A DNA stretch of 64,000 bases from an uncultured Ignavibacteriota bacterium (GTDB lineage Bacteria > Bacteroidota > Ignavibacteria > UBA10030 > BY39), in contig CAMTWO010000013.1 of assembly GCA_947085405.1 (NCBI GenBank), forward strand, positions 20,193-84,192, written 5' to 3'. A program made the translations under genes and the position numbers. Every line of letters starts with the position of its first letter. Position 1 is the first letter of the stretch. The notes beneath the pieces were generated by a model, which worked only from the letters and a program-made list of their open reading frames with translations, ran no database searches and was not told the DNA's origin. Of this stretch, positions 29,076-47,420 are shown piece after piece.

Positions 29076-29104
29076 TTGACATATACATTTTAATTCATTA
29101 TATT
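29076..29104 (+). promoter_or_regulatory. near-consensus sigma70-type promoter (TTGACA-N17-TATATT) for accessory operon 1
   Basis: TTGACA at 29076-29081, 17-nt spacer, TATATT at 29099-29104. About 135 nt of 5' UTR follow before ATG 29240. Confidence 0.5.
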
Positions 29105-29239
29105 TTCCCTGAAGTTTGTAACAGGTTTTATCAATATTCAAGTTGTTTTTTGTAATAACATTTAATTCAAATAATTCACATTACATGTTACTATGTTTTT
29201 AACTCAACAATCAACTTATAACATAAGGAGGTTAAAATC

Positions 29240-32203
29240 ATGATTAAAAAATTACTAGCTTTATTTCTCACTATTCTATTAGTAACAGTTGTTACATCTG
29301 CACAAGATGGTAAGTTACGTGGTATCATCACCGATAAAACTAACGGTGAGCCCCTGATTGGTGCAACAGTGTCTCTCGAAGGCACTATGATGGGTGCAGC
29401 AAGCGATATCAATGGTGAGTTTTTCATTTTAAGTGTTCCGCCCGGAACATACAGCATAAAGACATCCTATGTCGGTTATGCTCAAGTAACAATCTCAAAC
29501 GTTCGTGTCCTCTCGAATTTTACTACTACACAAAATTTTCAACTTCTAAGCGAAGCCGTCCAAGTTGATGCAGTAGATATTTTTGCCGAACGTCCGCTTA
29601 TTCAACGAAACACAACTAACACCGTTCGGGTTACTACACAAGAAGATATCAGGAATCTCCCAATTCGTGGACTAGAAAATATTCTGAGTCTGCAAGCTGG
29701 TGTGGTAGATCAAGATAATCAACTTTATGTACGCGGTGGACGTTCAGGCGAAATTGCATATTTTGTTGATGGCGCTTCTACAACAAATCCAATTACTAAT
29801 TCACAAACATTTTCGGTAATTCAGGAAGCTGTTGAAGAACTACAATTGCAAGCCGGCGGTTATACTGCAGAATTTGGCGGTGCAAATTCCGGTATCGCAC
29901 GAACTACTCTACGCACAGGTCAAAGCAGCTATAAAGGCTCGGTCGATTTCCTAACCGATAACCTTGCTAAACCCGGTGCCGACTATCTTGGTTCATCATC
30001 GTTTGGTTACACAAATATGGTGGCTACCATAAGCGGTCCTGTGATGAAAAATTTAAAATTTTTCGTAGCTGGTCAGCATCAATTTATTAGAAATCGCAGT
30101 CTAAGGTTCATAGAACCTTTCCGTTTCGAAAATATTGTTACGGATGTAAACGATGAAGCTCCCGGTAGATCGCTCCCTGGTCCGATCGAATTCAAGAAGA
30201 ATTATATCCCCGGTAACTGGCTTCAAAATTACTCAACTCAAGGTAACCTCAATTATGAGTTACAATCAATGAAGTTCAAACTATCCGGAAGTTACACATA
30301 CGATAAATCGCCATTCGATAACAGATGGCCCACAGCTTTAACACGGTATTTCAACAAACGGTCGCGTATCGACCACAACACTACCGGATTTGCAAATTTT
30401 AGATTTACACACGTTGTTAATCCAAAAACATACTACGAAGTAGCTCTCTCTTACCAGAGTCGTTACTTCCGTCGTGTTGATCCTGATTTTGGCGACGACT
30501 GGAAATCATATACCGATAGTACTAAAAATACCGAATTAGGTTACACCGGATTCCGACGTCCTTATGCGGGCCCTTTACCTTACAGCATTATCAATGCATT
30601 TTTAATGACACACGAGAATGCACCGAATAATGCTTATTCCAAAAACCAACAAACATCTTATGGTTTTGCTGGCGACTTTACTTCTCAACTAACATCAAAT
30701 TGGGAAATAAAATTTGGTACCAGATTAGATTCATGGATCGCCCGCAATTATGCTGTTGGTAACATCCAAGGTGCAATGGAGTTTCTCTATGGTACGGACG
30801 GAAGAACACCCCGAACCTTCGCTGATGATTATGAAAGGCGTGTAAGATTATCCAAAGCCGGAACTATCAATCATTACGGCTACGATGTTGATGGTAATGA
30901 AATTAATTCAGGAATTGATGCTCCTCGAAAGCCACTTTTTGCTTCGGCTTATTTGCAAAATAAATTAGAATATCAGGACATTATACTTAATTTAGGTCTT
31001 CGTTATGAATACTTCGATACGAAGAATAAGACTTTCAAAGATCCATTACAGCCCGATTTCAACACTGATTTAGATGTTATCGACGAAACTAAATTAGAGG
31101 AAGCAAAACCGTTTAATCTCGTATTGCCTCGTGTTAGTTTTTCGTTTCCCGTTACCGATGTTACAGTATTCTATGCTATGTACGGAAAATACGCACAGAT
31201 GCCATCTTTGAATCAACTTTATATCGGAAACACAACTCTTAGCCGTACAGTCAGTCCGATAACTCGTGGAAATGCATTCTTAACTCCAGTTGGATATCTG
31301 ATGATACCCGAAAGAACGACTCAGTACGAAATGGGTATTCGGCAGTCGTTAGCTGATAATTTTGCATTTACTGTAAGTGGTTTCTACAAAGACATAAAAG
31401 ACCAATTACAAGTTCGTTCCTATGTTAATGAAGCGGGTAGCAAATTGTTTACTGCATACTTGAACGATGACTTTGGTACGATTAAGGGGTTAGAACTTAC
31501 ACTCGAACTTCGCCGAACTAACCGATTAGCTACAAAGTTTAATTACACATTATCCGATGCCCGCGGAACAGGGTCAAATTCACAATCTTCATTTGGAGCT
31601 GTTGAACAAAACATCGGACGTCCGACAAGCTTCATAAACCCACTCGATTTTAACCAAACTCATTCAGGCACATTGTTGCTTGATTATAGATTTGCTAAAG
31701 GCGATGGTGGACCGATCTTAGAACAAATGGGCGTCAATATGATACTCTCGTTCAATAGCGGACATGCATATACTAAAATAAAAGAGTTGAAAGAACTCGG
31801 ACAAGCAAACGTTTGGGACGTCGGTGTGGAACCATTGAACGATCCACGGGCAAGTTTCCCGACCGAACCACTCAACAGTTCGACAACTCCCTGGGTATAT
31901 AATATCGACCTCAACTTCAGTAAAAAGTTCAACCTTGGTGTAATCGATGCTGAATTTTATGTAAATATTATTAATTTACTCAATACAAAGGACATATTGA
32001 ACGTCTATCCAACCACCGGAACTGCCCAGGACGATGGCTGGTTAGGTAATTCGTTGGCAACACCATTCCACCAAATTCCTAACTATACCGATTTCTATAA
32101 AGCCATTAATTCACAGAACCGTTGGGCTTATATGGTGGCTACTGGAAACGATTTGTTCGGTACACCGCGTCAGGTTCGTTTTGGTCTACGGCTTGAAATA
32201 TAA
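29240..32203 (+). CDS. TonB-dependent outer-membrane receptor with N-terminal carboxypeptidase-regulatory-like domain (SusC/RagA-like architecture); paralog 1
   Basis: 987 aa. Signal peptide; KLRGIITDKTNGEPLIGATVSLEG...DINGEFFILSVPPGTYSIK (CarboxypepD_reg-like); plug region ...QRNTTNTVRVTTQEDIRNLPIRGLENILSLQAGVV...YVRGG; long beta-barrel; strong AAGGAGG RBS. Confidence 0.85.
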   Translation: MIKKLLALFLTILLVTVVTSAQDGKLRGIITDKTNGEPLIGATVSLEGTMMGAASDINGEFFILSVPPGTYSIKTSYVGYAQVTISNVRVLSNFTTTQNFQLLSEAVQVDAVDIFAERPLIQRNTTNTVRVTTQEDIRNLPIRGLENILSLQAGVVDQDNQLYVRGGRSGEIAYFVDGASTTNPITNSQTFSVIQEAVEELQLQAGGYTAEFGGANSGIARTTLRTGQSSYKGSVDFLTDNLAKPGADYLGSSSFGYTNMVATISGPVMKNLKFFVAGQHQFIRNRSLRFIEPFRFENIVTDVNDEAPGRSLPGPIEFKKNYIPGNWLQNYSTQGNLNYELQSMKFKLSGSYTYDKSPFDNRWPTALTRYFNKRSRIDHNTTGFANFRFTHVVNPKTYYEVALSYQSRYFRRVDPDFGDDWKSYTDSTKNTELGYTGFRRPYAGPLPYSIINAFLMTHENAPNNAYSKNQQTSYGFAGDFTSQLTSNWEIKFGTRLDSWIARNYAVGNIQGAMEFLYGTDGRTPRTFADDYERRVRLSKAGTINHYGYDVDGNEINSGIDAPRKPLFASAYLQNKLEYQDIILNLGLRYEYFDTKNKTFKDPLQPDFNTDLDVIDETKLEEAKPFNLVLPRVSFSFPVTDVTVFYAMYGKYAQMPSLNQLYIGNTTLSRTVSPITRGNAFLTPVGYLMIPERTTQYEMGIRQSLADNFAFTVSGFYKDIKDQLQVRSYVNEAGSKLFTAYLNDDFGTIKGLELTLELRRTNRLATKFNYTLSDARGTGSNSQSSFGAVEQNIGRPTSFINPLDFNQTHSGTLLLDYRFAKGDGGPILEQMGVNMILSFNSGHAYTKIKELKELGQANVWDVGVEPLNDPRASFPTEPLNSSTTPWVYNIDLNFSKKFNLGVIDAEFYVNIINLLNTKDILNVYPTTGTAQDDGWLGNSLATPFHQIPNYTDFYKAINSQNRWAYMVATGNDLFGTPRQVRFGLRLEI

Positions 32204-32241
32204 TATAAACATAACTCAAAATTAAAAAGGAGTTGCTAAAA

Positions 32242-35200
32242 ATGAACATAAAAAAATTAAATTTACTAACAATACTTGTTGTTGTCTTCGGCTTTTTATG
32301 CTCTACTGTTTTTGGCTCTGGGATTCCAGATAAAAACAATCGCCAAAAAGATAAGTCGTTGATGAAACCAACAGGTACACCCCTTTACCAAATTCTGAAT
32401 ATTAATAACATCACCACTTGGATGCGGTCCGATGGTCAACAAAACCATTCACCCACGAGCGATAATGGTTCATATTTTCCACGTGGAACAAAATGGGCAA
32501 TTTATCAGGACGGTTTTGTATGGGGTGGAAAAGCTTATTTAGATGCCGGTTTAACTACACCGGCACCAACACAACTTATCCGTGTTGGAGGTCAAACATA
32601 CAACATCGGTACACGTGCAGGCCGCATAATGGGCACAGGTGCTACAGCAGTAGCTCAATCTCCAGCCGATGCGGATGTTCGCATTTATCGTATTCGCCGA
32701 GATTATGGTGAAATGGGAATTCAAGATCTGCAACAGGATGCTGCCGAAAGCTTCGAAGTTCCAATTGCAAGTGTAACAAAATCGCAAACTGATCAAATAT
32801 CTGATCAATATGAAAAAGATTGGGACGAGTGGCCCGTTGCTTATGGGGCACCATTTATTGAAAGGAATGGAACTCCGGGTTACCAGAAGCCCAAACCCTT
32901 TAATTATGATAAAACTAAGGGTGCTATTTTTAATACCGATTCTCTAATTGCTCATAATTATGATGAACCGGGACTTGCCGGAGTTGATCCTAAATCACCG
33001 GCAGATCAGGTTATTTGGACTGTAATCAACGACCTCGATCGAAGTGCATCTACAGGTTTATTTGGTTCAGAGCCATTAGGTCTTGAAGCACAAATTACAT
33101 TGTGGGGTTATAAACGCACCGATGCTATGGGAAATTTATACTTTAAAAAAATTAGATTCATCAATAAAGGTGGTGTTATTACAGTCCTACCTGATACCAA
33201 AGGTTCATTCCATATCGACAGTATGTATTTTGCACAATGGTCAGACCCGGATTTAGGTTCGTACGGTGATGACCTTTGCGGTGTCGATCAACCCCTCAGC
33301 TTAGGTTTTGTTTATAATGGAAATGCTGTCGATGCCGAGTATAAAAAATTCAATCTTCCACCACCGGCTGTAGGATACGACTTTTTGCAAGGTCCATTAG
33401 TTCCTGGCGCTCCAACTGACTCAGGTGTATTCAATCTCAAAAGGGTGTATGGGAAGAAGAATCTACCAATGACATCTTTTGCATATTTCTCTGCCGGTAG
33501 TGGTATTAGCGATCCACCATTTACATACGTAGGCGGTTTAAGATGGTGGAGAATGTTGCAAGGATTTGTACCCGAAGATGCAGCTACATGGAGATTATAT
33601 CCTCATCCAACTGGTGTTACTCCTACTAAATTTCCTCTTAATGGCGATCCTGTCAAGAAAACCGGCTTCATAGACGGAGCTGGGACACCCTCGTCATTTG
33701 CCCCCGGTGATCGAAGAATAGTTCTAAATACCGGACCTTTTTCACTTGCCCCCGGTGATACACAAGAAGTCGTCGTGGGTACTGTAGCCGGTTTAGGCAG
33801 CGATCGTTTCTCAAGTATTAATGTTATGAAATTTTATGACAGGTTTGTACAAAATACATACGATGCTCTATTTCAGGTTCCAAAAGCTCCATCCTCACCT
33901 GCTTTAAAAATAGCAGAACTCGATGGCGAAGTTATTCTGGAATGGGGTAGTGATTCAACGGCTGTGCTAAAAACAGAGACTCTAATTAACCAACCTGGAG
34001 ATTATCGATTTGAAGGTTATAACGTTTATCAGTTGCCAAGTGCTTCTTCCACTTTAGCCGATGCAAAGCGTATTGCAACTTATGATTTAATAAATGATAT
34101 TCCCGTTATACTTGACGAACAATTTGATAATAGATCGGGTGAAATTTTAATGCTGCCGGTTCAATATGGAACGAATAGCGGAATTATACGTCACTTCAAT
34201 TTCGTTCGTGATCATGTTTTAGATATCAATAAACTTAATAATGGGCAAGAATATTATGTAGCCGTTACTGCATATAGTAAATCAAACATACCTGGTTATT
34301 TACCAGCATCGTTAGAATCAAAACCAACTATATTTACAGTCCGTCCACAAAGTTCGACTGCTGGAAAACGATACACTGCAAAAGTGTACGACAAAGTAGC
34401 AGTAAAACTTGTAGCAGGTTCGTCCGATATTGAACTACCAGTTAAGGTTATTGACCCGTCCAAATTATTGGATGCCACATATTCCGTCTCGTTTGAAGTG
34501 GCTGGAGGGGTTACGTCTTGGCTTCTAAAAAACAAAGAGACTGGGGCACTTTTATACAAGAGTAAAAATCTCGGTTCGTTAATGTCTGGAGTGTTGAATG
34601 ATGATTTCGAATACCCTATTATTAATGGATTCCAAGTTGTAGTCGCACAGGAATCTCCCATTATTATTGAAGATTCAACGCGATGGATTCCCCAACGACC
34701 ATCTCAGTTAGACCATGGTAATCGTTATCCGGAAGGACCACCGGTTGCGCTTAGAAGTGTTACAACTGCTGAAGACTTATCCGCTCGATTCCTGGGGCAG
34801 TTTGCTTCATCATACGATATGGCGAAGTTGAAACGTGTAGAATTACGATTTGGGACTGGGAATGGCTCCAAAGCATATCGAGTTCGTCGAACTGGTGGAG
34901 GTACAGAATATTTAATTCAAACTAACGTTATTGCTGGCGTGGCACCTAATGGTGAAGGTTTTGTTAATGTTCCGTTTAGTGCTTGGGATATGGATAATCC
35001 GGGTGGTCCACGGCAAATTACCTTGAGTTGGAGAGACCAGAGCAATGATGCACGTTGGAATCCACCAACCACAGGTGATAATGTCGAAATTATTTTTATT
35101 CATGACCGGACATACGATCCACTTGGTACTCAGTATACATATCCCACTAATCCGGATCCTGCACGTCAAGGACCGGCGATATTAAATGAGGTTACTGTGG

Positions 35201-35703
35201 GTGCGAGGGCTGATATCATGTATGGTGTTTCTTTACGTTCAGTTGGTACTCAAATCGATGGTTCTGATGCTTCGGTCAGTGTAGCAACATTATATATTAG
35301 GCCCAAGTTTGTTTTAAATGATGCGTTGGTTTACGAGTTCACTACATCAGCTCCAACGTTTTCTCAGGAACTTGCCAAAGCCGATGCAGAAAAAGTTGGC
35401 GTATATCCAAATCCTTATTATGCTTTCAATCCTGCCGAAACCAACCGGTTTGTTAGGTTTGTAACATTCAACAAATTACCTGCGAAAGCAACAATAAGAA
35501 TATTCAACTTAGCCGGTCAGTTAGTTCGTACTCTCACAAAAGAGGATCCTTCACAGTTTATGCGATGGGATCTTAATAATGAGTATAATTTCCCGGTTGC
35601 AAGCGGTATTTACGTAGCACACGTGGATATGCCTGATGTAGGAGTTACCAAGATAGTTAAGGTAGCTATAATTCAAGAACAAGAAGTTCCAGATGTATTC
35701 TAA
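32242..35703 (+). CDS. large secreted protein (~1150 aa) with T9SS C-terminal sorting domain, no recognisable catalytic motif; paralog 1 (start at ATG 32242, not the track's TTG 32233, which overlaps the RBS)
   Basis: Signal peptide MNIKKLNLLTILVVVFGFLCSTVFG. Internal Fn3-like segment (...PKAPSSPALKIAELDGEVILEWG...). C-terminus VYPNPYYAFNPAET...ATIRIFNLAGQLVRTL...SGIYVAHVDM...KIVKVAII matches the type-A T9SS CTD pattern (PNP..., I.I.N..GQ.V, GIY). Confidence 0.8.
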   Translation: MNIKKLNLLTILVVVFGFLCSTVFGSGIPDKNNRQKDKSLMKPTGTPLYQILNINNITTWMRSDGQQNHSPTSDNGSYFPRGTKWAIYQDGFVWGGKAYLDAGLTTPAPTQLIRVGGQTYNIGTRAGRIMGTGATAVAQSPADADVRIYRIRRDYGEMGIQDLQQDAAESFEVPIASVTKSQTDQISDQYEKDWDEWPVAYGAPFIERNGTPGYQKPKPFNYDKTKGAIFNTDSLIAHNYDEPGLAGVDPKSPADQVIWTVINDLDRSASTGLFGSEPLGLEAQITLWGYKRTDAMGNLYFKKIRFINKGGVITVLPDTKGSFHIDSMYFAQWSDPDLGSYGDDLCGVDQPLSLGFVYNGNAVDAEYKKFNLPPPAVGYDFLQGPLVPGAPTDSGVFNLKRVYGKKNLPMTSFAYFSAGSGISDPPFTYVGGLRWWRMLQGFVPEDAATWRLYPHPTGVTPTKFPLNGDPVKKTGFIDGAGTPSSFAPGDRRIVLNTGPFSLAPGDTQEVVVGTVAGLGSDRFSSINVMKFYDRFVQNTYDALFQVPKAPSSPALKIAELDGEVILEWGSDSTAVLKTETLINQPGDYRFEGYNVYQLPSASSTLADAKRIATYDLINDIPVILDEQFDNRSGEILMLPVQYGTNSGIIRHFNFVRDHVLDINKLNNGQEYYVAVTAYSKSNIPGYLPASLESKPTIFTVRPQSSTAGKRYTAKVYDKVAVKLVAGSSDIELPVKVIDPSKLLDATYSVSFEVAGGVTSWLLKNKETGALLYKSKNLGSLMSGVLNDDFEYPIINGFQVVVAQESPIIIEDSTRWIPQRPSQLDHGNRYPEGPPVALRSVTTAEDLSARFLGQFASSYDMAKLKRVELRFGTGNGSKAYRVRRTGGGTEYLIQTNVIAGVAPNGEGFVNVPFSAWDMDNPGGPRQITLSWRDQSNDARWNPPTTGDNVEIIFIHDRTYDPLGTQYTYPTNPDPARQGPAILNEVTVGARADIMYGVSLRSVGTQIDGSDASVSVATLYIRPKFVLNDALVYEFTTSAPTFSQELAKADAEKVGVYPNPYYAFNPAETNRFVRFVTFNKLPAKATIRIFNLAGQLVRTLTKEDPSQFMRWDLNNEYNFPVASGIYVAHVDMPDVGVTKIVKVAIIQEQEVPDVF

Positions 35704-35734
35704 GGCTAAAATAATATTAAAAGGAGAATGAAAT

Positions 35735-36781
35735 ATGAAAAATAAATATTTATATACCGCCTTTTTAATAGGCCTTGTAATATTAGTTGTATTTAATTTT
35801 ACTGAGGCTCAAAATAAAAGGATAGGCACTGCGGCAGCCACTGAATTACTAATTCCCGTGGGTGCCCGCGATTTCGCAATGGGTGGTGCCACAATTTCAA
35901 ATACTTCCGGAGTCGAAGCAATACACTGGAATCCTGCCGGTCTCAGCTTAATAAAGTATGGTGCCGAAGGGATGTTCTCTTCCATGAATTATTTGGGAGA
36001 TATCGGTGTTAGCTACGGCGGCGTAGGTGTTTCGTTTGGCGATTTCGGTGTTGTTGGGTTAACTATAAAATCGCTTTCTTTCGGCGATATTCCACTCACC
36101 ACAAACGAAGACCCTGAAGGACTTTTAGGAAGAGTATATTCACCAACCTATTTTACTTTAGGTCTCACTTACTCTAAATCACTGACCGATGCTGTTGCGG
36201 CGGGTATTACAACTAAAATGATCTCTGAGCGAATCGACCGTGTTTCGGCTTCTGCTATCGCTTTCGATTTTGGTGTTATCTACCGTAATTTAGCTCATAT
36301 TTCCGGTTTGAATATGGGTGTAACGGTTAAAAACATCGGTACGCAAATGGCTTTTGATGGAACCGGATTGTACCGCAGCGCAACTTCAAGCGAAGGTTAT
36401 AGACCTGAACAAAGATACAAAATTCAAGCGGCAAGTTTCGAACTCCCATCTTCAATAGAAATCGGGCTTGCTTACGTTAGTACTTTGCAGGAAAATATAC
36501 ATTTTAGCTTGAACAGTACTTTTATAAATAACAATTTATACTTAGACGAATATAAACTTGGCGGTGAAATCGGATATTATCTAAGTGGTCTTAAATTGTT
36601 CGGAAGAGCCGGTATGGGTATGGTTCCACAAGCTGAAAAAGATGCAAATATTTTCGGCGGTACATTCGGCGCTGGTATTGCTTATTCTGCCCCAGGTGTT
36701 GATATTATCGTCGATTATGCATACAGACAAACCGATTTCTTCGACGGGAATAATGTATTATCCATCAAACTTGGTTTTTAA
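35735..36781 (+). CDS. PorV/FadL-like 14-strand outer-membrane beta-barrel (T9SS shuttle-like); paralog 1
   Basis: 348 aa. Signal peptide, then IGTAAATELLIPVGARDFAMGGA...EAIHWNPAGL (FadL/PorV-type N-terminal motif). Alternating beta-strand pattern; C-terminal ...SIKLGF ends in Phe (OMP beta-signal). Confidence 0.6.
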   Translation: MKNKYLYTAFLIGLVILVVFNFTEAQNKRIGTAAATELLIPVGARDFAMGGATISNTSGVEAIHWNPAGLSLIKYGAEGMFSSMNYLGDIGVSYGGVGVSFGDFGVVGLTIKSLSFGDIPLTTNEDPEGLLGRVYSPTYFTLGLTYSKSLTDAVAAGITTKMISERIDRVSASAIAFDFGVIYRNLAHISGLNMGVTVKNIGTQMAFDGTGLYRSATSSEGYRPEQRYKIQAASFELPSSIEIGLAYVSTLQENIHFSLNSTFINNNLYLDEYKLGGEIGYYLSGLKLFGRAGMGMVPQAEKDANIFGGTFGAGIAYSAPGVDIIVDYAYRQTDFFDGNNVLSIKLGF

Positions 36782-36806
36782 ATAATTCCCAAAAGTAACA
36801 CGTTTA

Positions 36807-36840
36807 AAAGGCTGACTTTTTTAAGTCAGCCTTTTTTTTA
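36807..36840 (+). terminator. rho-independent terminator of accessory operon 1
   Basis: AAAAGGCTGACTT-tttt-AAGTCAGCCTTTTTTTT. Confidence 0.65.
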
Positions 36841-36905
36841 TAATTGACTGAAGTTACTCGAAATTGACTTTTTGTCGCGTTGAGGATACTTTAATAGGTG
36901 TTACC

Positions 36906-37042
36906 TATTTCTCTTTTGAAAATGACAATCCTTGATATCTTAATTGTCTCCGTAGGAGACATATGTTTGTAGTAATGCGTTGTAGATGCGCCCACGACCC
37001 CAGAGGGGTCGAATGTCTTGTCATTAGGAGCGAAGAGAAATA
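36906..37042 (+). ncRNA. candidate structured RNA or MITE-like element: nested inverted repeats enclosing two GC-rich hairpins
   Basis: Outer 10-bp IR TATTTCTCTT (36906-15) / AAGAGAAATA (37033-42). Inner 8-bp IR AATGACAA (36921-28) / TTGTCATT (37018-25). Hairpins TGTCTCC-gta-GGAGACA (36945-61) and CGACCCC-aga-GGGGTCG (36995-37011). No ORF. Two further hairpins at 37076-37100 and 37106-37122. Confidence 0.3.
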
Positions 37043-37167
37043 TCTAAAAAACGCTTGAATTTCGTGCATTAGATTCTTCATCCACCTTTGGCGGATGAAG
37101 AATGATCCCGCAAAATGCGGGACGTAACTTCAGATATTAACGAAATATAATCTTAACTCTTTTCATT

Positions 37168-39489: not shown

Positions 39490-39518
39490 TTGACAACCAT
39501 CGGGATATTCCTTATATT
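39490..39518 (+). promoter_or_regulatory. near-consensus sigma70-type promoter (TTGACA-N17-TATATT) for accessory operon 2
   Basis: TTGACA at 39490-39495, 17-nt spacer, TATATT at 39513-39518. About 148 nt of 5' UTR follow before ATG 39667. Confidence 0.5.
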
Positions 39519-39666: not shown

Positions 39667-42600
39667 ATGATTATTAAAAAGTTACTATTTCTTTTTATTT
39701 TGCTCTTTATAGTTGTATCCATAAGTTTTGCTCAAACAACAGGTAAGCTAAATGGTAAAATTATCGATAAAGAGTCGCGAGAAGCTCTCATCGGTGTTAA
39801 CGTTATGCTCGAAGGCACAACGCTTGGAACCGTTACCGATGTAGATGGAAATTACATAATGTTAAATGTTCCTGTCGGCACTTATAATTTAATTGTGCGA
39901 TACGTAGGTTACCGGGAAGTTACAGTGAAAAACTTAAAATCGATGGTGAGTTTTACAACAACTCAAAACATAGAGTTGAGTTCCGAAGCTGTAGAACTCA
40001 AGGAAGTTGTGATCTCAGCGGAGCGGCCCCTAATACCCAAAGACCAGACTGGGACTGTTCGTGTTGTAACCTCAGAGCAAATTCAATTAATGCCGGTACG
40101 TGGTATCAGGGAAATGGCAGCTACTACTGCTGGTGTTGTGCAGGGTGAAAGAGGCGGCGAACTTAATATCCGGGGTGGTCGGTCAGAAGAAACAGGTTAC
40201 ATTGTCGATGGTGTTTGGACGAATAATCCTTTAACAGGTGGCTCAACTGCTTTTGTCAGTCAACGAGCAATTCAAGAAATGATAGTGATGACCGGTGGAT
40301 ATAGCGCCGAATACGGAAACGTGATGAGTGGTATTGTTAACGTCTCCACAAAATCCGGTAAACCAAATTATTTCGGTAGTTTTGAATATGTAACAGATGG
40401 ATTTCTGGGTGATGGAGTACAAGGGTGGCGAAATAATGGTTACCAATTGTATAATTTAGCATTTGGCGGACCTGTTATTCCTTCTAATAAAAACATTTTA
40501 CAATTCTTTGGCTCTTTTGAATATACATTTAACAGAGATCCAAATCCAAGTTACAACTCTGAAAGACTCAGCGACCTTTCTAATAGTATTTGGCCCAAAT
40601 TTAAGGAAGTAACAGTAAATTATATTCAAGAAGGTCTTCAAAGACTACCCAAACTGCCGAGTGAAGAAATTGATAAACGAGCTAAAGAATTATTATTAGA
40701 CCAACCGAATTGGAATTTAGCACGTCCTGGTCAAATGCCAGATGGTGCTTCGCTACGTCTTGCTTGGAACGAAAAATTAACTGCTAATTTAGGAGACTTC
40801 CGTGTTAATTTGGGTGGTATATCCTCGAGAACGTGGGCTCGTTCAAGGGTGTTCAGCTATACTTTGATGAATGCGTTCCACAATCCAATGACAAATTCAG
40901 TCAACGACCAATATACTTTACGAGTTACCTGGGCACCTCAACCAAAGACATTTGCTGAAATTCAGGGAAGTTATTTTTACACTTATTCTGATTACATGGA
41001 TCCTGTCCATGAAGATAGAGTCTTCGATTATGGAGATCCTGCAAAAAACCCCCTCTTCTTCAATTATTTTCCTCCGGGGGTAGATCCCAGCCAGTTGAGA
41101 GCATCAAGAATTCCGATGGATACATATTTAGGGATGTTTGCTTATCCAGGTCGGGTGTATAATGGATATGGATTTAATAAAACAACATTTTGGCAATTTA
41201 ACGCAAACGTAACTCATCAATTGGGTGAACACGAAATTAAATTAGGTGGTGAGTATAAAATCCATCAATTGCGCGCTTATGCAATAGGGCCTCTTAGTTT
41301 AGCTTTATTGCGACCGGGTATAATCGATACGTTACGGAATGGGTTGTATGATCAATTAACAGTAGCACAAAAATCTTACGTTCTTAAAGAATATGCATCA
41401 CGAGGTATCAATACTTATGGTTATGATTATTTCGGTCGGGAAGTTGATTATGACGGATACGTTAAGAGTGAACGGAGTGAAGGTCCCAAAGAACCTATCT
41501 TCGGCGCTTTGTATTTACAAGATAAAATGGAATACCAAGATTTTATTGTAAATGCCGGACTCAGATTTGATTATTGGGATTCTAACACGGATGTATTAAA
41601 AGATTTATACGATGTTGCTAATAGTAAAAATACTACACAATATGGATCACCAGAAAACTTTAAGCGATTGTTTCCAAATAAATCAGTTCCAGCAGATGGT
41701 TGGGGAAATCCAAACAAAATTGAGGACGACAGTTTTGAAGAATCAAAGCCATTCCTGATATTCAGCCCAAGGTTAGGCTTCTCTTTCCCCGTCTCTGAAA
41801 GAATGGTATTTTTTGCTCAATATGGGACATTCGCACAGATGCCCCCACTTTCGAACCTTTATATGAGTTCCGACAGGCTGCGCGAATGGTATTTAGCCCC
41901 CGGCTATTTTTCAATAAATAATCCTCGATTACGACCTCAAAAAACTACTCAATACGAATTAGGTATTCGTCAGCAATTAGGTGAAGTAGCAAGCTTAAAT
42001 ATTACAGCTTACTACAAAGAAATTACTGGACTTATTCAATTAGGTGTCATTGAATCACGTTGGAACAATACGACCTTCTCAACTCTTCAAAATGGTGATT
42101 ACTCGACTGTACGCGGATTTGATCTATCATTTGATTCACGGCGTTGGAATAATTTAGCTGCTTCTGTAAACTATACATTGTCGTATGCAACAGGTACAGG
42201 TTCCGATCCCGGCACGTTAGGCACAATTCTTTGGTTGAATGCGAGAGCTCCAAAATTTGAATCCCCACTCGATTTCGATCAGCGTCACACAATTGCTGCA
42301 ACATTAGATTACCGTTTCGGAAAAATGGATAATGTATTTTTAAATCAACTCGGTATGAATTTATTATTCAGAAGTAACAGCGGTAGGCCCTATACACTAA
42401 ATGATCCAAGTATTCCACCAACCGACTCACGAATAAAACCTCAATCAACAATTAACGCTAATTACAGCGATTGGAATTTTAGGTTCGATTACCGAATTGA
42501 TAAAACTTTTGAATTACCTATTTCCAATATGAGGTTGAATACTTATATATTAATTTTGAATTTGCTGGACAGAAAAAATATTGCTAGCGTATGGGCTGGT

Positions 42601-42789
42601 TCAGGTCAACCTGATCAAACTGGATATACTCAAACCCCGGATTTCAAAGCAACAATCCAGAGAATGATCGAACAAGATAGAGCTGATGAAGTACCTGTTT
42701 TCACCGGAATATATAATATGTACGAGATGCAACCGAGCTTCGTAGGTGCACCTCGGCAAGTCAGATTTGGACTTATTTTAGAATTTTAA
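39667..42789 (+). CDS. TonB-dependent outer-membrane receptor with N-terminal carboxypeptidase-regulatory-like domain; paralog 2
   Basis: 1040 aa. KLNGKIIDKESREALIGVNVMLEG...VDGNYIMLNVPVGTYNL; plug ...TGTVRVVTSEQIQLMPVRGIREMAATTAGVV...NIRGG; C-terminal ...APRQVRFGLILEF. Co-linear with 29240..32203. Confidence 0.85.
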   Translation: MIIKKLLFLFILLFIVVSISFAQTTGKLNGKIIDKESREALIGVNVMLEGTTLGTVTDVDGNYIMLNVPVGTYNLIVRYVGYREVTVKNLKSMVSFTTTQNIELSSEAVELKEVVISAERPLIPKDQTGTVRVVTSEQIQLMPVRGIREMAATTAGVVQGERGGELNIRGGRSEETGYIVDGVWTNNPLTGGSTAFVSQRAIQEMIVMTGGYSAEYGNVMSGIVNVSTKSGKPNYFGSFEYVTDGFLGDGVQGWRNNGYQLYNLAFGGPVIPSNKNILQFFGSFEYTFNRDPNPSYNSERLSDLSNSIWPKFKEVTVNYIQEGLQRLPKLPSEEIDKRAKELLLDQPNWNLARPGQMPDGASLRLAWNEKLTANLGDFRVNLGGISSRTWARSRVFSYTLMNAFHNPMTNSVNDQYTLRVTWAPQPKTFAEIQGSYFYTYSDYMDPVHEDRVFDYGDPAKNPLFFNYFPPGVDPSQLRASRIPMDTYLGMFAYPGRVYNGYGFNKTTFWQFNANVTHQLGEHEIKLGGEYKIHQLRAYAIGPLSLALLRPGIIDTLRNGLYDQLTVAQKSYVLKEYASRGINTYGYDYFGREVDYDGYVKSERSEGPKEPIFGALYLQDKMEYQDFIVNAGLRFDYWDSNTDVLKDLYDVANSKNTTQYGSPENFKRLFPNKSVPADGWGNPNKIEDDSFEESKPFLIFSPRLGFSFPVSERMVFFAQYGTFAQMPPLSNLYMSSDRLREWYLAPGYFSINNPRLRPQKTTQYELGIRQQLGEVASLNITAYYKEITGLIQLGVIESRWNNTTFSTLQNGDYSTVRGFDLSFDSRRWNNLAASVNYTLSYATGTGSDPGTLGTILWLNARAPKFESPLDFDQRHTIAATLDYRFGKMDNVFLNQLGMNLLFRSNSGRPYTLNDPSIPPTDSRIKPQSTINANYSDWNFRFDYRIDKTFELPISNMRLNTYILILNLLDRKNIASVWAGSGQPDQTGYTQTPDFKATIQRMIEQDRADEVPVFTGIYNMYEMQPSFVGAPRQVRFGLILEF

Positions 42790-42815
42790 TCAAAATTTTT
42801 AAGGAGTTTATTACT

Positions 42816-45800
42816 ATGAAAATAAAATTTTTATTGGTGTTTCTATTTGCTTTGTCCTTCTCATTGGGATATTCATTGGATATTGAATCTTCTAGAAAGG
42901 CTGCTCTAGGACCACACAAGCCAATGATTATCGAACGAAAAGCTATGGATATTAATACCATTAATGCTTGGTTCCGAAATGAGGGTGAGTTTTATAGCGA
43001 CCACAAAACTACTGGTCCTGGTTTTGAGTGGCCCAAAGGTGGAAAAGTTCACGCTATTTTTTCTTCGTCAATGTGGATTGGAGCGAGAGTAGTTAACCCT
43101 GAAGATACAACTAAAAAGGATATCCGGGTTGCTACAGTTGGTCATTTTGGTTCAGAGCACCGTCCGGGTATAATTTTACCAGACGGTACTGCTGACGATT
43201 TTACCCGCCCGAAATATCGATATTATCGGGTGCGTCCTAACGAAGATTCTCCTCGCACGAGTGCCGATTATGCGGAATGGCCTGCTGAAGACGGCGCACC
43301 TTTTCACGATGTTGACAAAGATGGTATATATAATCCAAATGTAGATAAACCAGCATTAGTCTGGGGAGACCAAATAGTTTACCCGGATATGTTGATGTTT
43401 GCGGTTTACAATGATGCTGAAGAAGCTTATCATAATTGGATTTGGGGGAGAAGTAAACCATTAGGTGCTGAAATCCGGCAGACATCGTGGGCCTATAATC
43501 GTGCAGGACCGTTCGGTCAAATGCAATTTATGAAGTTTGAAGTTATTAACAAAAGTAACGCTCCATGGGATTCTGCTTATTTGGTAGTATGGTCCGATCC
43601 AGATATGGGAGATGCTTTTGATGATGCTTCAGGCGTCGATACAACAATCGTCAATCCTAGAACAAAAGAAAAACGGAATTTAGGTTATGTTTATAATGGT
43701 ACGAATACTGATGCGGGTTATGGAACAGCTCCACCGGCTGTTGGTTATAAATATTTTCAAGGACCCCGCTTAAAAACCGATCTTATTACTGATACTGCAA
43801 AGTGGTCGGGGCAATTGCTACCTGGTTATAAAAATTTAAATGTTTCCGGGTTCAATTTTTATTGTAACCCTGGACAAGGTGGCTGCACGAATCCTGATTG
43901 GTATGACCCGTTCTTATTTTTGCAATCTTATAATGTTATGCAAGGTCTAACTCGTACCGGCAGAAGATGGGTATGTGAAGGCGATACAACTTATTTTATG
44001 TTCGCCGGAGACCCTGTTACAAACACAGGTTGTACCTACTCAGACTTACTGCAACCCTCTGATGTTAGATTTACTTTACCGGCTGGTCCTTTCACAATTA
44101 TGCCTGGTGATACACAACAAGTAGTAATAGGTATAATTGTTGGAAGAGGCTCTAATAACTTAAATAGTATTAGCGTATTACGCACCTATGCCGATATGTC
44201 GCAAATATTATTTAACAATAATTTTAAGTTACCTCCTGCTCCACCAAGCCCTAAAGTTGAGCACAGCTGGATTGATGGAAAAATAATTTTATCCTGGGAC
44301 AAAGACAAAGCATCAAGAACTTTCAGGAACCCGGATGAAAAATTCTTTAACACTGTCTGGAAATTTAATGCATTTACTATTTATCAAACTAACGATCCAC
44401 TTCTAAGACCCGGTGCACGTACTGAAAAACTTGGAACATACTATAAAAAAGGTGATTCGTCGAAAGTGAAAGATTTTGTTATATTCCCAGGAGTTGACGA
44501 CCCCGTCCTGGCCACTATTTGGGAAGGTGATTTTGAAGGTATAATAGATCAACTCGTTTTAACAGAGGATCGAATCAATTCTAAACCATTTATACCGGGA
44601 AGACCTTATCACTTCATCATTACTGCCTCTGCAGTTGATTCTAATTATAACCCTTTAGATTCAGCAAGAATTAAAGACCTAAGCGGATTGATTTTATTAG
44701 AATCACCGAAAAATGTAATTACAATAATACCAAAAAATCCTGTTCTTGGGACTGAGTTTCCGAGTGGTAACGATTATGGTTCTGTTATTCCTCATAATAA
44801 GTGGAAATCTCTTAAAAATTATGACGATGCAGTTCAAGTGAAAGTTGTTGATCCGTGGCGAACTGAAAATAAGAAGTATCGAATTACATTACAAGGTAAT
44901 GACCCATCAAATACATTAAATGTAACTTCTTGGTCACTACTTGAATTGAATTCAAATAATGAAGTAGTTGATACTGTAATTGCAAATTATAATAATTTTA
45001 ACGGAGGGACTGATTATCCTGTGGTGTCAAACGTTATGCCTGTTGTACAAAATTTACCTATTGGAGTCAGGCGGCGTTTTCAGGTACCATCTGGTTTCTC
45101 ATACCAAGGGAAACGTTGGTTTACAGGTTTGAGAGGACCCCAGATGGATGATACATTAGCTTCAATACAAATTACACCAACTCGACGAGCACCTGTAACT
45201 GGTGTTGTTTCATATCCACAAATAGGTAGATACACAAACGCAATTACAGGTTTACGCCCGGATAGCTTACGGCGTGTTGAAATTCGTTTTTCAAAAACAA
45301 ATACACAAAAAGCATATAGATATGTCACTGGTTTTGAGATTAGGCCGATAAAAGGCCCGATTCATTCAGAATTTAGACCATATTTAGTAGATTCTACTGG
45401 ATTCGGCTATTTATATCAGGATTACCAACAATATAGGATGGGTATTCAGGACAGTGGTTATGTCGTACCGTTTACCGTTTGGGAAGTTGATTCTTTATAC
45501 GGAGATGGGAAACCACGACAATTGGATGTTGCGATAGTTGAAAGAAACGATTCGATGCGTGTCGTCCGAAAAGATATTTATGGAAGAGATAGCATTGTTC
45601 ATGTTTACAGAGGTAAAATTGACGCAAAATGGGATCCTTCTCCCTATACCGGTGAAAATCATTCTGAAGGTGATGAAGTAATTTTGGTATTCCGCTCTTC
45701 TTACTCAGATACTGCGAAACCAGAGTACACTAAAAAAGATAGAGATTACAAAGATTTCGAGTTTAAAAATTTGCCTTTAATGTACATTATAGTAATGCGC

Positions 45801-46298
45801 AAAGTAAATGAACAATCAAATTTTGCTGATGGAGATGTTATCGCCATCCGGCCTAACTATGCTTTAAATACAGACAAAATTTTTGAGTTCGAAGTTAAAG
45901 CTCCACAAGTAGGCTTTTCAGAAATCGCGAAACAGCGTGACGAGATGCGCAAAATTAAAATTGTTCCAAATCCGTACTATGCATCTCATCAACTGCAGGC
46001 TGATCCATTTGATAGTTATGTAACCTTTACCAATCTTCCTACCAGAGCAAAGATTAGAATTTTTAATTTAGCTGGTGATATGGTAGCGGTTGTAAATCAC
46101 GACTACCAAGGACAAATGGATAACAGCTCTACACGTTGGGGTCTCAAAAATCACGCCAATATTCCTGTAGCAAGTGGAATGTATATTGCACATATCGAAG
46201 GTTATGGACTTGATGAGCATGGAGGGGAAGTGAAAATAGGTGAAAAGGTGTTGAAGTTTGCAATATTCATACAAGAAGAACGACTTGACACATTCTAA
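42816..46298 (+). CDS. large secreted protein (~1160 aa) with T9SS C-terminal sorting domain; paralog 2
   Basis: Signal peptide MKIKFLLVFLFALSFSLG. Shares blocks with 32242..35703 (PPAVGYKYFQGP / PPAVGYDFLQGP; FTIMPGDTQQVVIGIIVGRGSN / FSLAPGDTQEVVVGTVAGLGSD; LPPAPPSPKVEHSWIDGKIILSWD). C-terminus IVPNPYYA...AKIRIFNLAGDMVAVV...SGMYIAHIEG...KVLKFAIF is a T9SS CTD. Confidence 0.8.
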   Translation: MKIKFLLVFLFALSFSLGYSLDIESSRKAALGPHKPMIIERKAMDINTINAWFRNEGEFYSDHKTTGPGFEWPKGGKVHAIFSSSMWIGARVVNPEDTTKKDIRVATVGHFGSEHRPGIILPDGTADDFTRPKYRYYRVRPNEDSPRTSADYAEWPAEDGAPFHDVDKDGIYNPNVDKPALVWGDQIVYPDMLMFAVYNDAEEAYHNWIWGRSKPLGAEIRQTSWAYNRAGPFGQMQFMKFEVINKSNAPWDSAYLVVWSDPDMGDAFDDASGVDTTIVNPRTKEKRNLGYVYNGTNTDAGYGTAPPAVGYKYFQGPRLKTDLITDTAKWSGQLLPGYKNLNVSGFNFYCNPGQGGCTNPDWYDPFLFLQSYNVMQGLTRTGRRWVCEGDTTYFMFAGDPVTNTGCTYSDLLQPSDVRFTLPAGPFTIMPGDTQQVVIGIIVGRGSNNLNSISVLRTYADMSQILFNNNFKLPPAPPSPKVEHSWIDGKIILSWDKDKASRTFRNPDEKFFNTVWKFNAFTIYQTNDPLLRPGARTEKLGTYYKKGDSSKVKDFVIFPGVDDPVLATIWEGDFEGIIDQLVLTEDRINSKPFIPGRPYHFIITASAVDSNYNPLDSARIKDLSGLILLESPKNVITIIPKNPVLGTEFPSGNDYGSVIPHNKWKSLKNYDDAVQVKVVDPWRTENKKYRITLQGNDPSNTLNVTSWSLLELNSNNEVVDTVIANYNNFNGGTDYPVVSNVMPVVQNLPIGVRRRFQVPSGFSYQGKRWFTGLRGPQMDDTLASIQITPTRRAPVTGVVSYPQIGRYTNAITGLRPDSLRRVEIRFSKTNTQKAYRYVTGFEIRPIKGPIHSEFRPYLVDSTGFGYLYQDYQQYRMGIQDSGYVVPFTVWEVDSLYGDGKPRQLDVAIVERNDSMRVVRKDIYGRDSIVHVYRGKIDAKWDPSPYTGENHSEGDEVILVFRSSYSDTAKPEYTKKDRDYKDFEFKNLPLMYIIVMRKVNEQSNFADGDVIAIRPNYALNTDKIFEFEVKAPQVGFSEIAKQRDEMRKIKIVPNPYYASHQLQADPFDSYVTFTNLPTRAKIRIFNLAGDMVAVVNHDYQGQMDNSSTRWGLKNHANIPVASGMYIAHIEGYGLDEHGGEVKIGEKVLKFAIFIQEERLDTF

Positions 46299-46322
46299 AA
46301 TGAAAGTATAAGGAAAAAAGTC

Positions 46323-47363
46323 ATGAAAAGATTGAAATTATTAAACATAATATTAGTTGTAGCTATTATTATATCATTCACATTCGATAGTTTTGCAGGT
46401 TCACCAAATCGGCGTGGAACTGCAGGAGCTACTGAATTACTAATTCCTGTAGGGTCGACCGGTGTAGGGATGAGTGGATCGATTTTAGCAACTGCCCACG
46501 GGTTAGATGCGATACACTGGAATCCTGCTGGTTTATCAAGGAGCAATCTCAGCGCCCAGGTGATGTTCTCGAATTTATCATACATTGCAGATATTGGCGT
46601 TAATTATTTAGCGGTTTCTGCAAATATGGAAGATTTAGGACATCTCGGTGTCAGTTTTAAAACTCTATCTTTTGGAAAAATCGAAGAAACTACAATTGAT
46701 AGACCGGAAGGAACTGGTATTACTTACTCACCAACATTTCTAACAGTCGGTTTAACTTATTCGCGTAGAATGACAGATAGAATTCATTTTGGGACAAATA
46801 TCAAAATGGTTTACGAATCCATTACCCGCGTATCAGCAACAGCGTTTGCATTCGATCTTGGATTACAATACAAAGCTGGTGAAACAGGATTCAACTTCGG
46901 CGTGGCACTCAAAAACTTGGGATCAGAAATTAGTTTTGATGGTTCAGATTTTGACAGATTTGTTGATGACCCAAATCAGATCACCGGATATCCGACTCAA
47001 CCAATGCGACTTAGGACTGCCGGATTCGGTATGCCTACAACTTTAGAATTAGGTCTTGCCTACAAATATCCACTGATGGCAGAACACTTAGTAGAGATGA
47101 GCACTACTTTCATAAACAATAACTACTCAAATGATGAATATCGCTTTGGTGTTGAATATGCTTATAATAATTTATTTTTTATTAGAGGTGGGTATGCCTA
47201 TGCGCAAGGTGTTCCCTCGGAATTTGAAAATATTTTCGGACCTACTTTTGGTGCCGGTGTTCGTTATACTATTAGTGGAGTTGAAATGTCTGTAGATTAT
47301 GCATATCGTTCCACTACTTTCTTTTCCGGTAATCAATGGTTCTCTGTGATGATAGGTTTTTAA
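46323..47363 (+). CDS. PorV/FadL-like outer-membrane beta-barrel; paralog 2
   Basis: 346 aa. RGTAGATELLIPVGSTGVGMSGS...DAIHWNPAGL; C-terminal ...DYAYRSTTFFSGNQWFSVMIGF. Co-linear with 35735..36781. Confidence 0.6.
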   Translation: MKRLKLLNIILVVAIIISFTFDSFAGSPNRRGTAGATELLIPVGSTGVGMSGSILATAHGLDAIHWNPAGLSRSNLSAQVMFSNLSYIADIGVNYLAVSANMEDLGHLGVSFKTLSFGKIEETTIDRPEGTGITYSPTFLTVGLTYSRRMTDRIHFGTNIKMVYESITRVSATAFAFDLGLQYKAGETGFNFGVALKNLGSEISFDGSDFDRFVDDPNQITGYPTQPMRLRTAGFGMPTTLELGLAYKYPLMAEHLVEMSTTFINNNYSNDEYRFGVEYAYNNLFFIRGGYAYAQGVPSEFENIFGPTFGAGVRYTISGVEMSVDYAYRSTTFFSGNQWFSVMIGF

Positions 47364-47382
47364 TTTAGCATTTTAAGGTAGT

Positions 47383-47420
47383 AGGGTTGTTCTTTTTTGA
47401 GAGCAACCCTTTTATATTTT
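47383..47420 (+). terminator. rho-independent terminator of accessory operon 2
   Basis: AGGGTTGTTC...GAGCAACCCT (one mismatch) followed by TTTTATATTTT. Confidence 0.55.

Follow-up and report, generated by a model that had tools for sequence, protein, structure and literature searches.

Two triads of genes lie in tandem in the window, by which we mean the whole 64-kb stretch of DNA that was analysed; all features described below are on the forward (+) strand. Triad 1 (T1-G1-V1, 29240–36781) and triad 2 (T2-G2-V2, 39667–47363) share an identical gene order, and an ORF check confirmed all six genes at the coordinates given in the initial annotation. Each triad encodes a TonB-dependent transporter (T), a large secreted protein (G) and an outer-membrane barrel (V), with spacings of 24–38 nt between the genes and a Shine-Dalgarno sequence before each of them.

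The initial annotation had described two operons, each with its own promoter, leader and terminator, and matching sites and hairpins were located at both triads. A promoter-like site (TTGACA-17-TATATT, 11/12 match) is found about 130 nt upstream of T1 (29076–29104), and a second site of the same form and match about 142 nt upstream of T2 (39490–39518). These are the two best sigma-70-like matches between 28.3 and 48.3 kb, placed directly upstream of T1 and T2; the total of promoter-like matches in the region is no greater than expected by chance, so only position and match quality carry weight. Nineteen other loci have the TTGACA-N17-TATATT form upstream of T as well, between −96 and −406. The leaders, 130–140 nt in length, showed neither an Rfam match nor a conserved leader sequence. 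Terminator hairpins followed by a T run are located after V1 (hairpin 36806–36835, feature 36806–36843, 13-bp stem) and after V2 (47383–47410, 12-bp stem).

At the protein level, the paralogues are 30–41% (T), 26% (G, full length) and 43% (V) identical, and just two short patches of the triads align at the DNA level, which shows that the duplication is old, as had been proposed, rather than a recent repeat. The triads had also been called adjacent; they are indeed in tandem on the same strand, but a 761-aa gene, M (37168–39453), sits between them. M encodes an exported protein with a PIG-L/LmbE-like N-domain, for which no PDB match was found; PF02585 was matched by all 19 M orthologues tested, which have no invariant His. 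Downstream of triad 2 lies N (47436–48308), which encodes an NHL-repeat protein; its ORF opens at TTG 47397, with ATG 47436 the likelier start.

Conservation of the triad across lineages

Among 185,579 species-representative genomes, at least 592 matched stretches carry the module, with one to several diverged triad copies per genome. It is conserved across many phyla related to Bacteroidota, and its carriers include Ignavibacteria, Marinimicrobia, Latescibacterota, KSB1, Calditrichota and others. The T-G-V order is kept across at least nine phylum-level lineages, with T in 59 of 60 and V in 58 of 66 related loci, so that the arrangement is very strongly conserved in related genomes; no V adjoins in the other eight of the 66.

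The surroundings are conserved as well. The triad occupies the same position across lineages within a housekeeping neighbourhood (rpoA-rplQ-engB ... ssb), where M is a frequent neighbour of G1-type triads (directly after V in 26/81 loci) and N a conserved downstream neighbour. Five loci (L003, L004, L018, L034 and L068) have the order T-G-V-M-N-SSB, and one further locus (L086) keeps the tandem order T-G-V-T-G2-V-NHL-...-SSB. No SusD-like match was found among the scanned ORFs of the window, in agreement with the initial annotation, and neither G protein has a SusD/RagB Pfam match. The locus is therefore not a polysaccharide utilisation locus in the strict sense of an adjacent SusC-like and SusD-like pair, the gene after T being G. 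SprA/Sov and PorK, L, M and N are all absent from the window; a T9SS in this organism is nevertheless likely, since the same genome encodes ordinary type A cargo (L082) and the literature lends support (PMC11285876).

T is a complete transporter and V a PorV/PorQ-family barrel

T1 (29240–32203, 987 aa) has a signal peptide, a CarboxypepD_reg domain, a putative TonB box, a plug and a barrel, and T2 (39667–42789, 1040 aa) has CarboxypepD_reg, Plug and TonB_dep_Rec_b-barrel domains above the Pfam cut-offs. T1 likewise exceeds the cut-offs for PF13620/PF13715, PF07715 and PF00593. For T1 and T2 respectively, the plug (PF07715) scores 30.9 and 42.3 bits (cut-off 23.9) and the 22-strand barrel (PF00593) 94.2 and 99.6 bits (cut-off 27), so T is a complete TonB-dependent transporter. 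A motif between the CarboxypepD_reg domain and the plug, xVxIxAERPLIQ, is conserved in 71 T orthologues and, from its position and form, is probably the TonB box. The earlier description as a SusC-like TonB-dependent receptor stands as regards TonB dependence but not the SusC family, since T1 and T2 reach only 61.7 and 84.3 bits with the SusC/RagA model TIGR04056 (cut-off 368), in which the N-terminal ~200 residues alone align.

V1 (35735–36781, 348 aa) and V2 (46323–47363, 346 aa) score 142 and 170 bits with NF033709, the PorV/PorQ-family model (cut-off 90 bits), and a V protein from Zixibacteria scores 156 bits. Neither is PorV proper (NF033710, 62 and 68 bits against an equivalog cut-off of 250) nor PorQ proper (NF033711, 80 bits each against 220), although PorQ is the best match at equivalog level; on these profile scores V is a separate PorV/PorQ subfamily. 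The only PDB sequence match of V1 is F. johnsoniae PorV (6h3i_F). The initial annotation had spoken of a PorV/FadL-like barrel, of which the PorV half holds; the FadL/OmpP1/TodX model PF03349 gave 20.6 bits for V2, below its cut-off of 29.7, and no match for V1, so that V is not a generic FadL transporter.

G combines a supersandwich fold with a conserved T9SS tail

G1 (32242–35703) is a secreted T9SS protein of 1153 aa counted from ATG 32242, the start in public gene calls; its ORF opens at TTG 32233, which would give 1156 aa. G2 (42816–46298, 1160 aa) is a divergent paralogue with the same domain order and tail type, and 11 orthologues of it are at least 50% identical. Both G1 and G2 show a signal peptide. 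The first domain of G1 (aa 45–556, 32365–33900) is a predicted beta-supersandwich that includes a helical insert; its Asp-rich loop (WSDPDLG..GDD..G.D) is invariant. There follow an FN3/Ig-like beta-sandwich region (aa 557–780, 33901–34572), assigned from the full-length model and from Foldseek matches to FN3 and Ig arrays, a variable region (aa 781–1045, 34573–35367) and the C-terminal T9SS sorting domain (35368–35703) with the conserved tail ...KVAIIQEQEVPDVF. Mean identity among G1-type proteins is 67% in the N-domain, 52% in the FN3/Ig-like region, 25% in the variable region and 71% in the tail, which is thus the most conserved part of G.

The sorting domain had been considered the only recognisable part of this protein. 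Sequence searches agree to a large extent: G1 and G2 have no significant Pfam domain, and beyond the tail nothing in Pfam, NCBIfam or the PDB sequences matches them; at least 1757 G homologues lack Pfam domains except for a few tail or insert matches, and the N-domain, with 3859 cluster representatives, belongs to no Pfam family. By structure prediction, however, the N-terminal 500 residues adopt a confident galactose-mutarotase-like beta-supersandwich, within a full-length model of moderate confidence (pLDDT 67). The fold is not confined to sugar binding: the YidC P1 domain and amine oxidases, for example, have it too.

The supersandwich is found alongside many glycoside hydrolases, phosphorylases and lyases, and in aldose epimerases it is itself the catalytic domain. 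G could therefore be an enzyme outside the cell whose catalytic domain is new, such as a glycan-active lyase or hydrolase; T would import its products, and the part of V would be limited to delivery or anchoring. Also in favour of this are invariant Asp, Glu, Asn and Arg residues that form a cluster, and the ~265 residues without a fold assignment (781–1045). Tested against characterised enzyme families, however, G matched none: there is no catalytic-domain match by fold or sequence, the sole fold match being the non-catalytic beta-supersandwich, and the (alpha/alpha)6 catalytic barrel that follows the supersandwich in GH15/GH65/GH94-type glycoside hydrolases and phosphorylases is missing. G also lacks any invariant His or Cys, its Asp-rich loop resembles a calcium site, and region 781–1045 is the least conserved part, the opposite of what is expected of an active site. 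We consider an enzymatic G improbable.

The sorting domain of G1 passes the T9SS type A model TIGR04183 (26.4 bits, cut-off 23), a model that 23 of 25 G family members tested also match. G2 alone gave no match at E 0.01 or better; its tail is 42–43% identical to that of G1 and matches the PorZ C-terminus, which is the best match of the G1 tail and is matched by all 25 members tested. G is not PorZ itself: membership requires a full-length NF052228 match including two beta-propellers, and G1 reaches 37.5 bits against a cut-off of 260, with only residues 1049–1148 aligned, to positions 667–757 at the C-terminal end of the model.

The tail is retained in an abundant Melioribacter roseus orthologue

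In two sample sheets of the published membrane proteomics of Melioribacter roseus, the one cultured organism with such data, MROS_0286 and MROS_0285, the orthologues of T and G, rank first and second. The main text of that paper makes no mention of TonB receptors, and the MROS locus tags of the triad were not found in the searchable literature. The tail of the G orthologue, about 10% of its length, accounts for 11.5% of peptide rows, and the native C-terminus is among the peptides recovered; precursor trapped in the membrane fractions could partly contribute to this. This recovery in proportion to length indicates that the tail is kept and is not what removal by PorU after export would leave; in this respect G is like PorZ and PorU, whose tails are likewise retained. 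The G1 tail is 69% identical to the tail retained in Melioribacter.

Since no part of G is better conserved than the tail, and since the tail resembles the retained one of PorZ and its peptides occur in Melioribacter membranes in line with its length, V seems to anchor an uncleaved tail permanently, in the manner of PorQ, and not to act as the dedicated PorV-like shuttle per cargo that the initial annotation had envisaged. The same likenesses (a tail closest to PorZ and retained as in PorZ, a barrel closest to PorQ and a G fold of the carbohydrate-binding type) might suggest that in these lineages G and V do the work of PorZ and PorQ: instead of a nutrient system they would belong to the T9SS attachment machinery, where G would bind a lipopolysaccharide glycan for the sortase. 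We regard this as very improbable: the PorZ body is absent, with only the last ~90–100 residues of G matching, genomes carry several diverged triads, the abundance of G is second only to, and near that of, the transporter, unlike that of a catalytic accessory factor, and T would be left without a role.

Expression of the M. roseus triad is similar and high on acetate and maltose, more like that of a general-purpose or structural complex than of a substrate-induced utilisation locus. M. roseus also carries a genuine SusCDE set, so the triad is not a simple fill-in for a missing SusD, and the earlier idea of a T9SS partner standing in for that lipoprotein is no more than a proposal. These expression data, the first and second rank of T and G in the membranes, the housekeeping neighbourhood, the strong promoter and Shine-Dalgarno matches and a G made largely of beta-sandwich domains, with a variable outermost region, would also suit a structural surface coat or adhesin anchored by V, in which T is a membrane platform or an unrelated general importer and the module builds the surface. 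The conserved TonB box and plug of T are hard to explain without energised transport, though, and T-G adjacency in 59/60 loci, together with N-domain conservation far above what is usual for coat or adhesin proteins, also argues against a coat, which we think unlikely on balance.

A possible capture complex at the outer membrane

The explanation that accounts best for these observations, and in which our confidence is about evenly balanced, is a three-protein outer-membrane complex in which a T9SS-exported G, docked on V by its uncleaved tail, serves as a capture or lid subunit for T. Sec would export G, and the T9SS would then take it across the outer membrane via its C-terminal domain, which, in contrast to ordinary T9SS cargo, G would keep. 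This domain would dock permanently on the cognate PorQ-like V, as PorZ does on PorQ, and G would thereby stay on the cell surface. Ligand, which we infer to be a glycan, would be captured by the N-terminal beta-supersandwich and the variable distal region and passed through G-T contact to the co-expressed transporter, which would import it with TonB energy. G would thus play the role that SusD, RagB or BtuG lipoproteins have in Bacteroidia, in a complex made at similar, high levels in both growth conditions tested.

It is synteny and co-abundance that suggest this coupling of G to T and V. The similar expression on acetate and maltose, the SusCDE set of M. roseus, the occurrence of the supersandwich beyond sugar binding, a G in which no ligand-binding residues were recognised and the eight loci without an adjacent V speak against this reading. 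With somewhat less assurance, and tentatively, we extend the proposal to much of the FCB superphylum outside the classical Bacteroidia, where the dominant outer-membrane complex may be one with a T9SS-delivered G, tail-docked on a PorQ-like barrel, as extracellular capture or lid subunit of T. If so, a secretion system would be directly linked to nutrient import, and the N-domain would be a new 500-residue family of ligand-binding domains with thousands of members. The carrier lineages are important in sediments, in aquifers and in the ocean interior, which gives their main surface and uptake complex an ecological interest in addition to the mechanistic one. Since the proteins are so abundant in M. 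roseus, purification of the native complex for cryo-EM looks feasible.

Comparison with known systems

A literature search found no description of the triad, consistent with the initial view that it is not a described system. Pairs of a transporter and a surface lipoprotein are the central nutrient-uptake scheme of Bacteroidia, and the triad resembles SusC/SusD, RagA/RagB and BtuB/BtuG in that the gene of a large CarboxypepD_reg-type transporter is directly followed by that of a surface-exposed partner, in several diverged copies. In Porphyromonas gingivalis, RagAB ranks with the most abundant membrane proteins, as the T-G pair does in M. roseus. Unlike SusD and RagB, G is not a lipoprotein and lacks their fold, being a T9SS substrate of 1150 aa whose N-domain has the supersandwich fold; the triad also differs from all three pairs in adding a PorV/PorQ barrel, in a T that fails the SusC/RagA model and in a T-G contact that is putative.

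Retained-tail T9SS proteins on PorV-like barrels are, to our knowledge, known so far mainly as parts of the secretion machine. In PorZ-PorQ and PorU-PorV of the T9SS attachment complex, a PorV-family barrel holds a T9SS protein at the surface, and the C-terminal domain of that protein is not removed (PMC10202324). The tail of G is nearest to PorZ and V nearest to PorQ, with retention supported by the proteomics; the body of G, however, is unrelated to the PorZ beta-propellers, G is encoded with a TonB-dependent transporter, is multi-copy and extremely abundant, and G-V has no known part in cargo processing.

SprB-SprF of Flavobacterium johnsoniae (a type B cargo with a PorP/SprF barrel) similarly places one cargo beside one dedicated PorV-like barrel, but the G tail is type A, V is of the PorV/PorQ family, the triad has a transporter gene besides and gliding is not implied. 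In the Bacteroidota BAM, BamG-BamH has a small FadL-like barrel that anchors a large surface protein beside a bigger barrel, an arrangement that FCB phyla have conserved (PMC12611786); BamH, a lipoprotein, is attached through its lipidated N-terminus, the partner barrel is BamA and V matches PorV/PorQ, so the likeness is one of analogy. Set against these systems, the module would join transporter-partner pairs with retained-tail T9SS anchoring.

Two ancient triads in a housekeeping neighbourhood

Eight genes between 29.0 and 48.3 kb share the + strand: T1 (29240-32203), encoding a TonB-dependent transporter; G1 (32233/32242-35703), a secreted protein with a signal peptide and a T9SS tail; V1 (35735-36781), a PorV/PorQ-family barrel; M (37168-39453), a 761-aa exported protein; T2 (39667-42789), a second TonB-dependent transporter; G2 (42816-46298), with a signal peptide and a PorZ-like tail; V2 (46323-47363), again of the PorV/PorQ family; and N (47397/47436-48308), an NHL-repeat protein. 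Intergenic gaps inside each triad are 24-38 nt, and every triad gene is preceded by a Shine-Dalgarno sequence. With rpoB, rpoC, ribosomal-protein operons, secY, rpoA, rplQ and an EngB-like GTPase gene on the 5' side, and ssb, a CorC-type transporter gene and SppA on the 3' side, the triads sit in a core housekeeping neighbourhood. Besides the canonical rpsL-rpsG-fusA-tuf set at 8992-13226, the window has, within 55761-58712, a second EF-G paralogue (698 aa) with two small ORFs ahead of it; the first of these ORFs shows weak matches of coiled-coil type.

Protein identity between paralogues is 30-41% for T, 26% for G and 43% for V, and G1 orthologues from other phyla are nearer to G1 than G2 is, indicating that the two triads are ancient paralogues. 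DNA similarity between the triads is nearly absent, which excludes a recent tandem repeat and agrees with the old duplication proposed in the initial annotation. Compared with the order T-G-V-M-N-SSB common to several relatives, T2-G2-V2 is placed between M and N; the related locus L086 reads T-G-V-T-G2-V-NHL-(PorV-like)-SSB.

Within 20 kb, the two sites that best match a sigma-70 promoter, both TTGACA-17-TATATT (11/12), precede T1 and T2, and a hairpin terminator follows each of V1 and V2, in line with the earlier suggestion, at the level of prediction, that each operon has its own promoter and terminator. Promoter-like matches overall equal the chance expectation in number, so that only the position and quality of the T1 and T2 sites carry weight. 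The same TTGACA-N17-TATATT also precedes T in 19 other loci, where the leader is roughly 60-370 nt long. Rfam gave no riboswitch or leader RNA for either window leader, whether with the gathering threshold or with E ≤1, and the leaders of 11 orthologues have no common sequence besides the Shine-Dalgarno site. Six T leaders from other loci (L006, L009, L028, L041, L063, L070) contain an internal AAGGAGGTGA(C/T)CTG motif, missing from both window leaders, ~45-60 nt past the predicted transcription start; the motif looks complementary to the 16S rRNA 3' end and may act as a standby ribosome site or begin a leader peptide. The 330-nt gap from the V1 terminator to M (36840-37167) holds three short GC-rich hairpins (36945-36961, 36995-37011 and 37105-37123 on the minus strand), with no above-noise Rfam match.

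The triad is conserved across lineages

A pattern scan using one genome per species returned at least 592 confirmed matches, the best 80 of which come from MAGs labelled Ignavibacteria, Bacteroidota, KSB1, Latescibacterota, Marinimicrobia, Calditrichota, Gemmatimonadetes and Fidelibacterota, as well as from cultured Melioribacter. In loci whose contig extends far enough, T lies immediately 5' of G in 59 of 60 loci and V immediately 3' of G in 58 of 66, showing that the arrangement is conserved in related genomes. Zixibacteria and Eisenbacteria loci contain the same triad. Some genomes have at least three triads (L006 and L043 stem from one MAG), and two stand in tandem in L015, L047 and L086.

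Beyond the triad, M recurs as a neighbour in 26 loci and a GWxTD-domain protein in 22; N and SSB also recur, as do rpoA, rplQ and engB on the upstream side. The GWxTD-domain protein (420-460 aa; TIGR04514/PF20094) often follows V or M in these 22 loci (e.g. L028, L059, L066) and in L088; none was seen in the window at 20-56 kb. Distant triads have cell-wall genes nearby: an Amidase_3 gene lies directly 3' of V in L085, and in L088 genes for an NlpC/P60 protein and an M23 peptidase, together with mreBCD and a PBP, lie within ~10 kb. The N-domain of M matches PIG-L/LmbE in 19/19 orthologues tested, and its C-terminal part weakly matches DUF7408/DUF4350. An active GlcNAc deacetylase hinting at a substrate was rejected, as there is no invariant His among the 19 orthologues and no PDB match; judged by its residues, M is probably not a zinc deacetylase, and we regard it as a putative accessory protein.

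G resembles a binding protein more than an enzyme

CarboxypepD_reg, plug and TonB-dependent barrel domains all score over Pfam cut-offs in both T1 and T2. Of their initial description as SusC-like TonB-dependent receptors, the second half stands, but they fail the SusC/RagA model (62 bits for T1 and 84 for T2 versus a cut-off of 368). A motif kept in 71 T orthologues, xVxIxAERPLIQ, would by position and form be the TonB box.

Both G1 and G2 carry a signal peptide, and neither has a significant Pfam domain. G1 reaches the cut-off of TIGR04183 (T9SS type A sorting domain) with its last ~100 residues, and the tail region of either protein has the PorZ C-terminus as its top match; as noted initially, nothing else is recognised by Pfam or NCBIfam. 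Phmmer and profile searches against PDB sequences likewise found no known fold or characterised enzyme family. A multihaem cytochrome was rejected, the CxxCH motif being absent and Cys residues numbering just 2-4. Foldseek with a full-length model retrieved Ig/FN3 arrays, plus PorZ/PorU at very low TM-score; as this model was of only moderate confidence (pLDDT 67), the N-domain (aa 45-556) was re-modelled alone with a deeper alignment. The resulting galactose-mutarotase-like beta-supersandwich weakly suggests a glycan as the ligand of G.

A 90%-clustered database contains at least 1757 close family members for G1 and 554 for G2, nearly all of them 1100-1200 aa long and bearing no name other than 'hypothetical' or 'T9SS type A sorting domain-containing'. 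Alone, the N-domain retrieves 3859 cluster representatives at 50% identity; among 150 listed, it begins near the protein N-terminus. No catalytic barrel follows it, because the remainder of G is beta-sandwich. Among G1-type proteins, mean identity is 71% in the tail (aa 1046-1156), 67% in the N-domain, 52% in the FN3-like region (aa 557-780) and 25% in the variable region (aa 781-1045). All 80 genome loci encode proteins nearer to G1 and none a G2-type protein; G2 orthologues were obtained by a separate search. An Asp-rich loop, WSDPDLG..GDD..G.D, is among the invariant residues and looks like a calcium site; no His or Cys is invariant. G is therefore better read as a binding protein than as a recognisable enzyme, and a novel enzyme is less likely.

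The tail of G is retained in Melioribacter roseus membranes

On the PorV/PorQ family model NF033709 (cut-off 90), V1 scores 142 bits and V2 170; both fail the PorV, PorQ and FadL models, so that of the PorV/FadL-like barrel first proposed the PorV-family part holds and the FadL part does not; BamG-like and FadL-like identities were rejected on model scores. Of the solved structures, only Flavobacterium johnsoniae PorV is related to V, whose best specific match is PorQ. The PorZ C-terminus is matched by 25/25 G family members tested. Porphyromonas gingivalis PorZ retains its tail, through which it is bound to PorQ (PMC10202324), and cognate PorV-like barrels have been suggested to shield tails from cleavage (reviews; PMC10202324). 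G and V resemble this pair in both the tail and the best specific barrel match. That G and V are PorZ/PorQ-equivalent machinery, as this likeness might imply, is less likely than that V holds G as a surface subunit. No other part of G is conserved as well as the tail; such conservation would be unusual for a signal cut off and discarded and points to retention of the tail.

In the same genome as the window, locus L082 encodes two tandem 1150-aa paralogues that share the G N-domain (57% identity over 475 residues), have an ordinary type A tail (NYPNPFNP...) with the PorU tail as top match, and adjoin neither a transporter nor a PorV-like gene; a BNR/sortilin-like T9SS protein follows them.

Between G1 and the G orthologue of Melioribacter sp. 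Ez-97, tail identity is 69%; the Ez-97 protein is near-identical to the Melioribacter roseus orthologue MROS_0285, with which it clusters at ≥90%. In the published M. roseus membrane-fraction proteome (Gavrilov et al. 2017; PMC5492636), MROS_0285 tail peptides are abundant: WDLNNESDLPVASGLYVVHIDMPDLGK (12 rows, Mascot up to 170), VAIIQEQQILDR/F (10 rows, 6 of which extend to the native C-terminal Phe, Mascot 117), IFNLAGQLVR (8 rows), DTPDQFFR (2 rows) and a junction-spanning peptide, 975-1009 (9 rows, up to 99.6). The tail accounts for 41/356 peptide rows (11.5%) at ~10% of protein length. This abundance, native C-terminus included, shows that the tail is kept on membrane-associated G in M. 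roseus.

The triad dominates a membrane proteome

In both readable sample sheets of that study, MROS_0286 (T) ranks first and MROS_0285 second by protein score, with MROS_0284 (V) likewise high. Normalised emPAI values (T 1.45-1.83, G 0.89-1.28, V 1.04-1.34) are above everything in the quantification table's first part (maximum 0.91), and levels under maltose fermentation and under aerobic growth on acetate differ by a factor of only 1.13-1.26 (PMC5492636). TonB receptors are unmentioned in the main text of PMC5492636, so T is undiscussed there. Table S6 also lists a second very abundant TonB-dependent receptor and an abundant 'Gingipain R' under adjacent locus tags (MROS_1581/MROS_1582), which may be a further pairing of transporter and T9SS-type surface protein.

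The best-supported reading is that T, G and V form an abundant three-part outer-membrane complex, present at a similar level under both conditions tested. The T9SS would export G, V would hold it at the surface by binding its uncleaved tail, and G would contact T as a capture or lid subunit for inward transport. The main rival, a structural coat or adhesin, is favoured by the abundance, by expression that is alike in the two conditions and by the housekeeping location. The intact TonB box and plug of T, and the near-obligate T-G adjacency, speak against this rival.

Since the M. roseus genome also encodes SusCDE, the triad is an additional system and no stand-in for a missing SusD. The full-text literature covered, searched with M. 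roseus locus tags included, holds no account of the module, in keeping with the first impression of an undescribed system, although many subscription-journal papers lie outside this coverage and a description could be missed there. Both kinds of assembly are known, the transporter paired with a surface partner as well as the T9SS protein that keeps its tail on a PorV-family barrel; new, as far as can be told, are their joining in one conserved operon, the uncharacterised N-domain family of G and the module's dominance of the membrane proteome.
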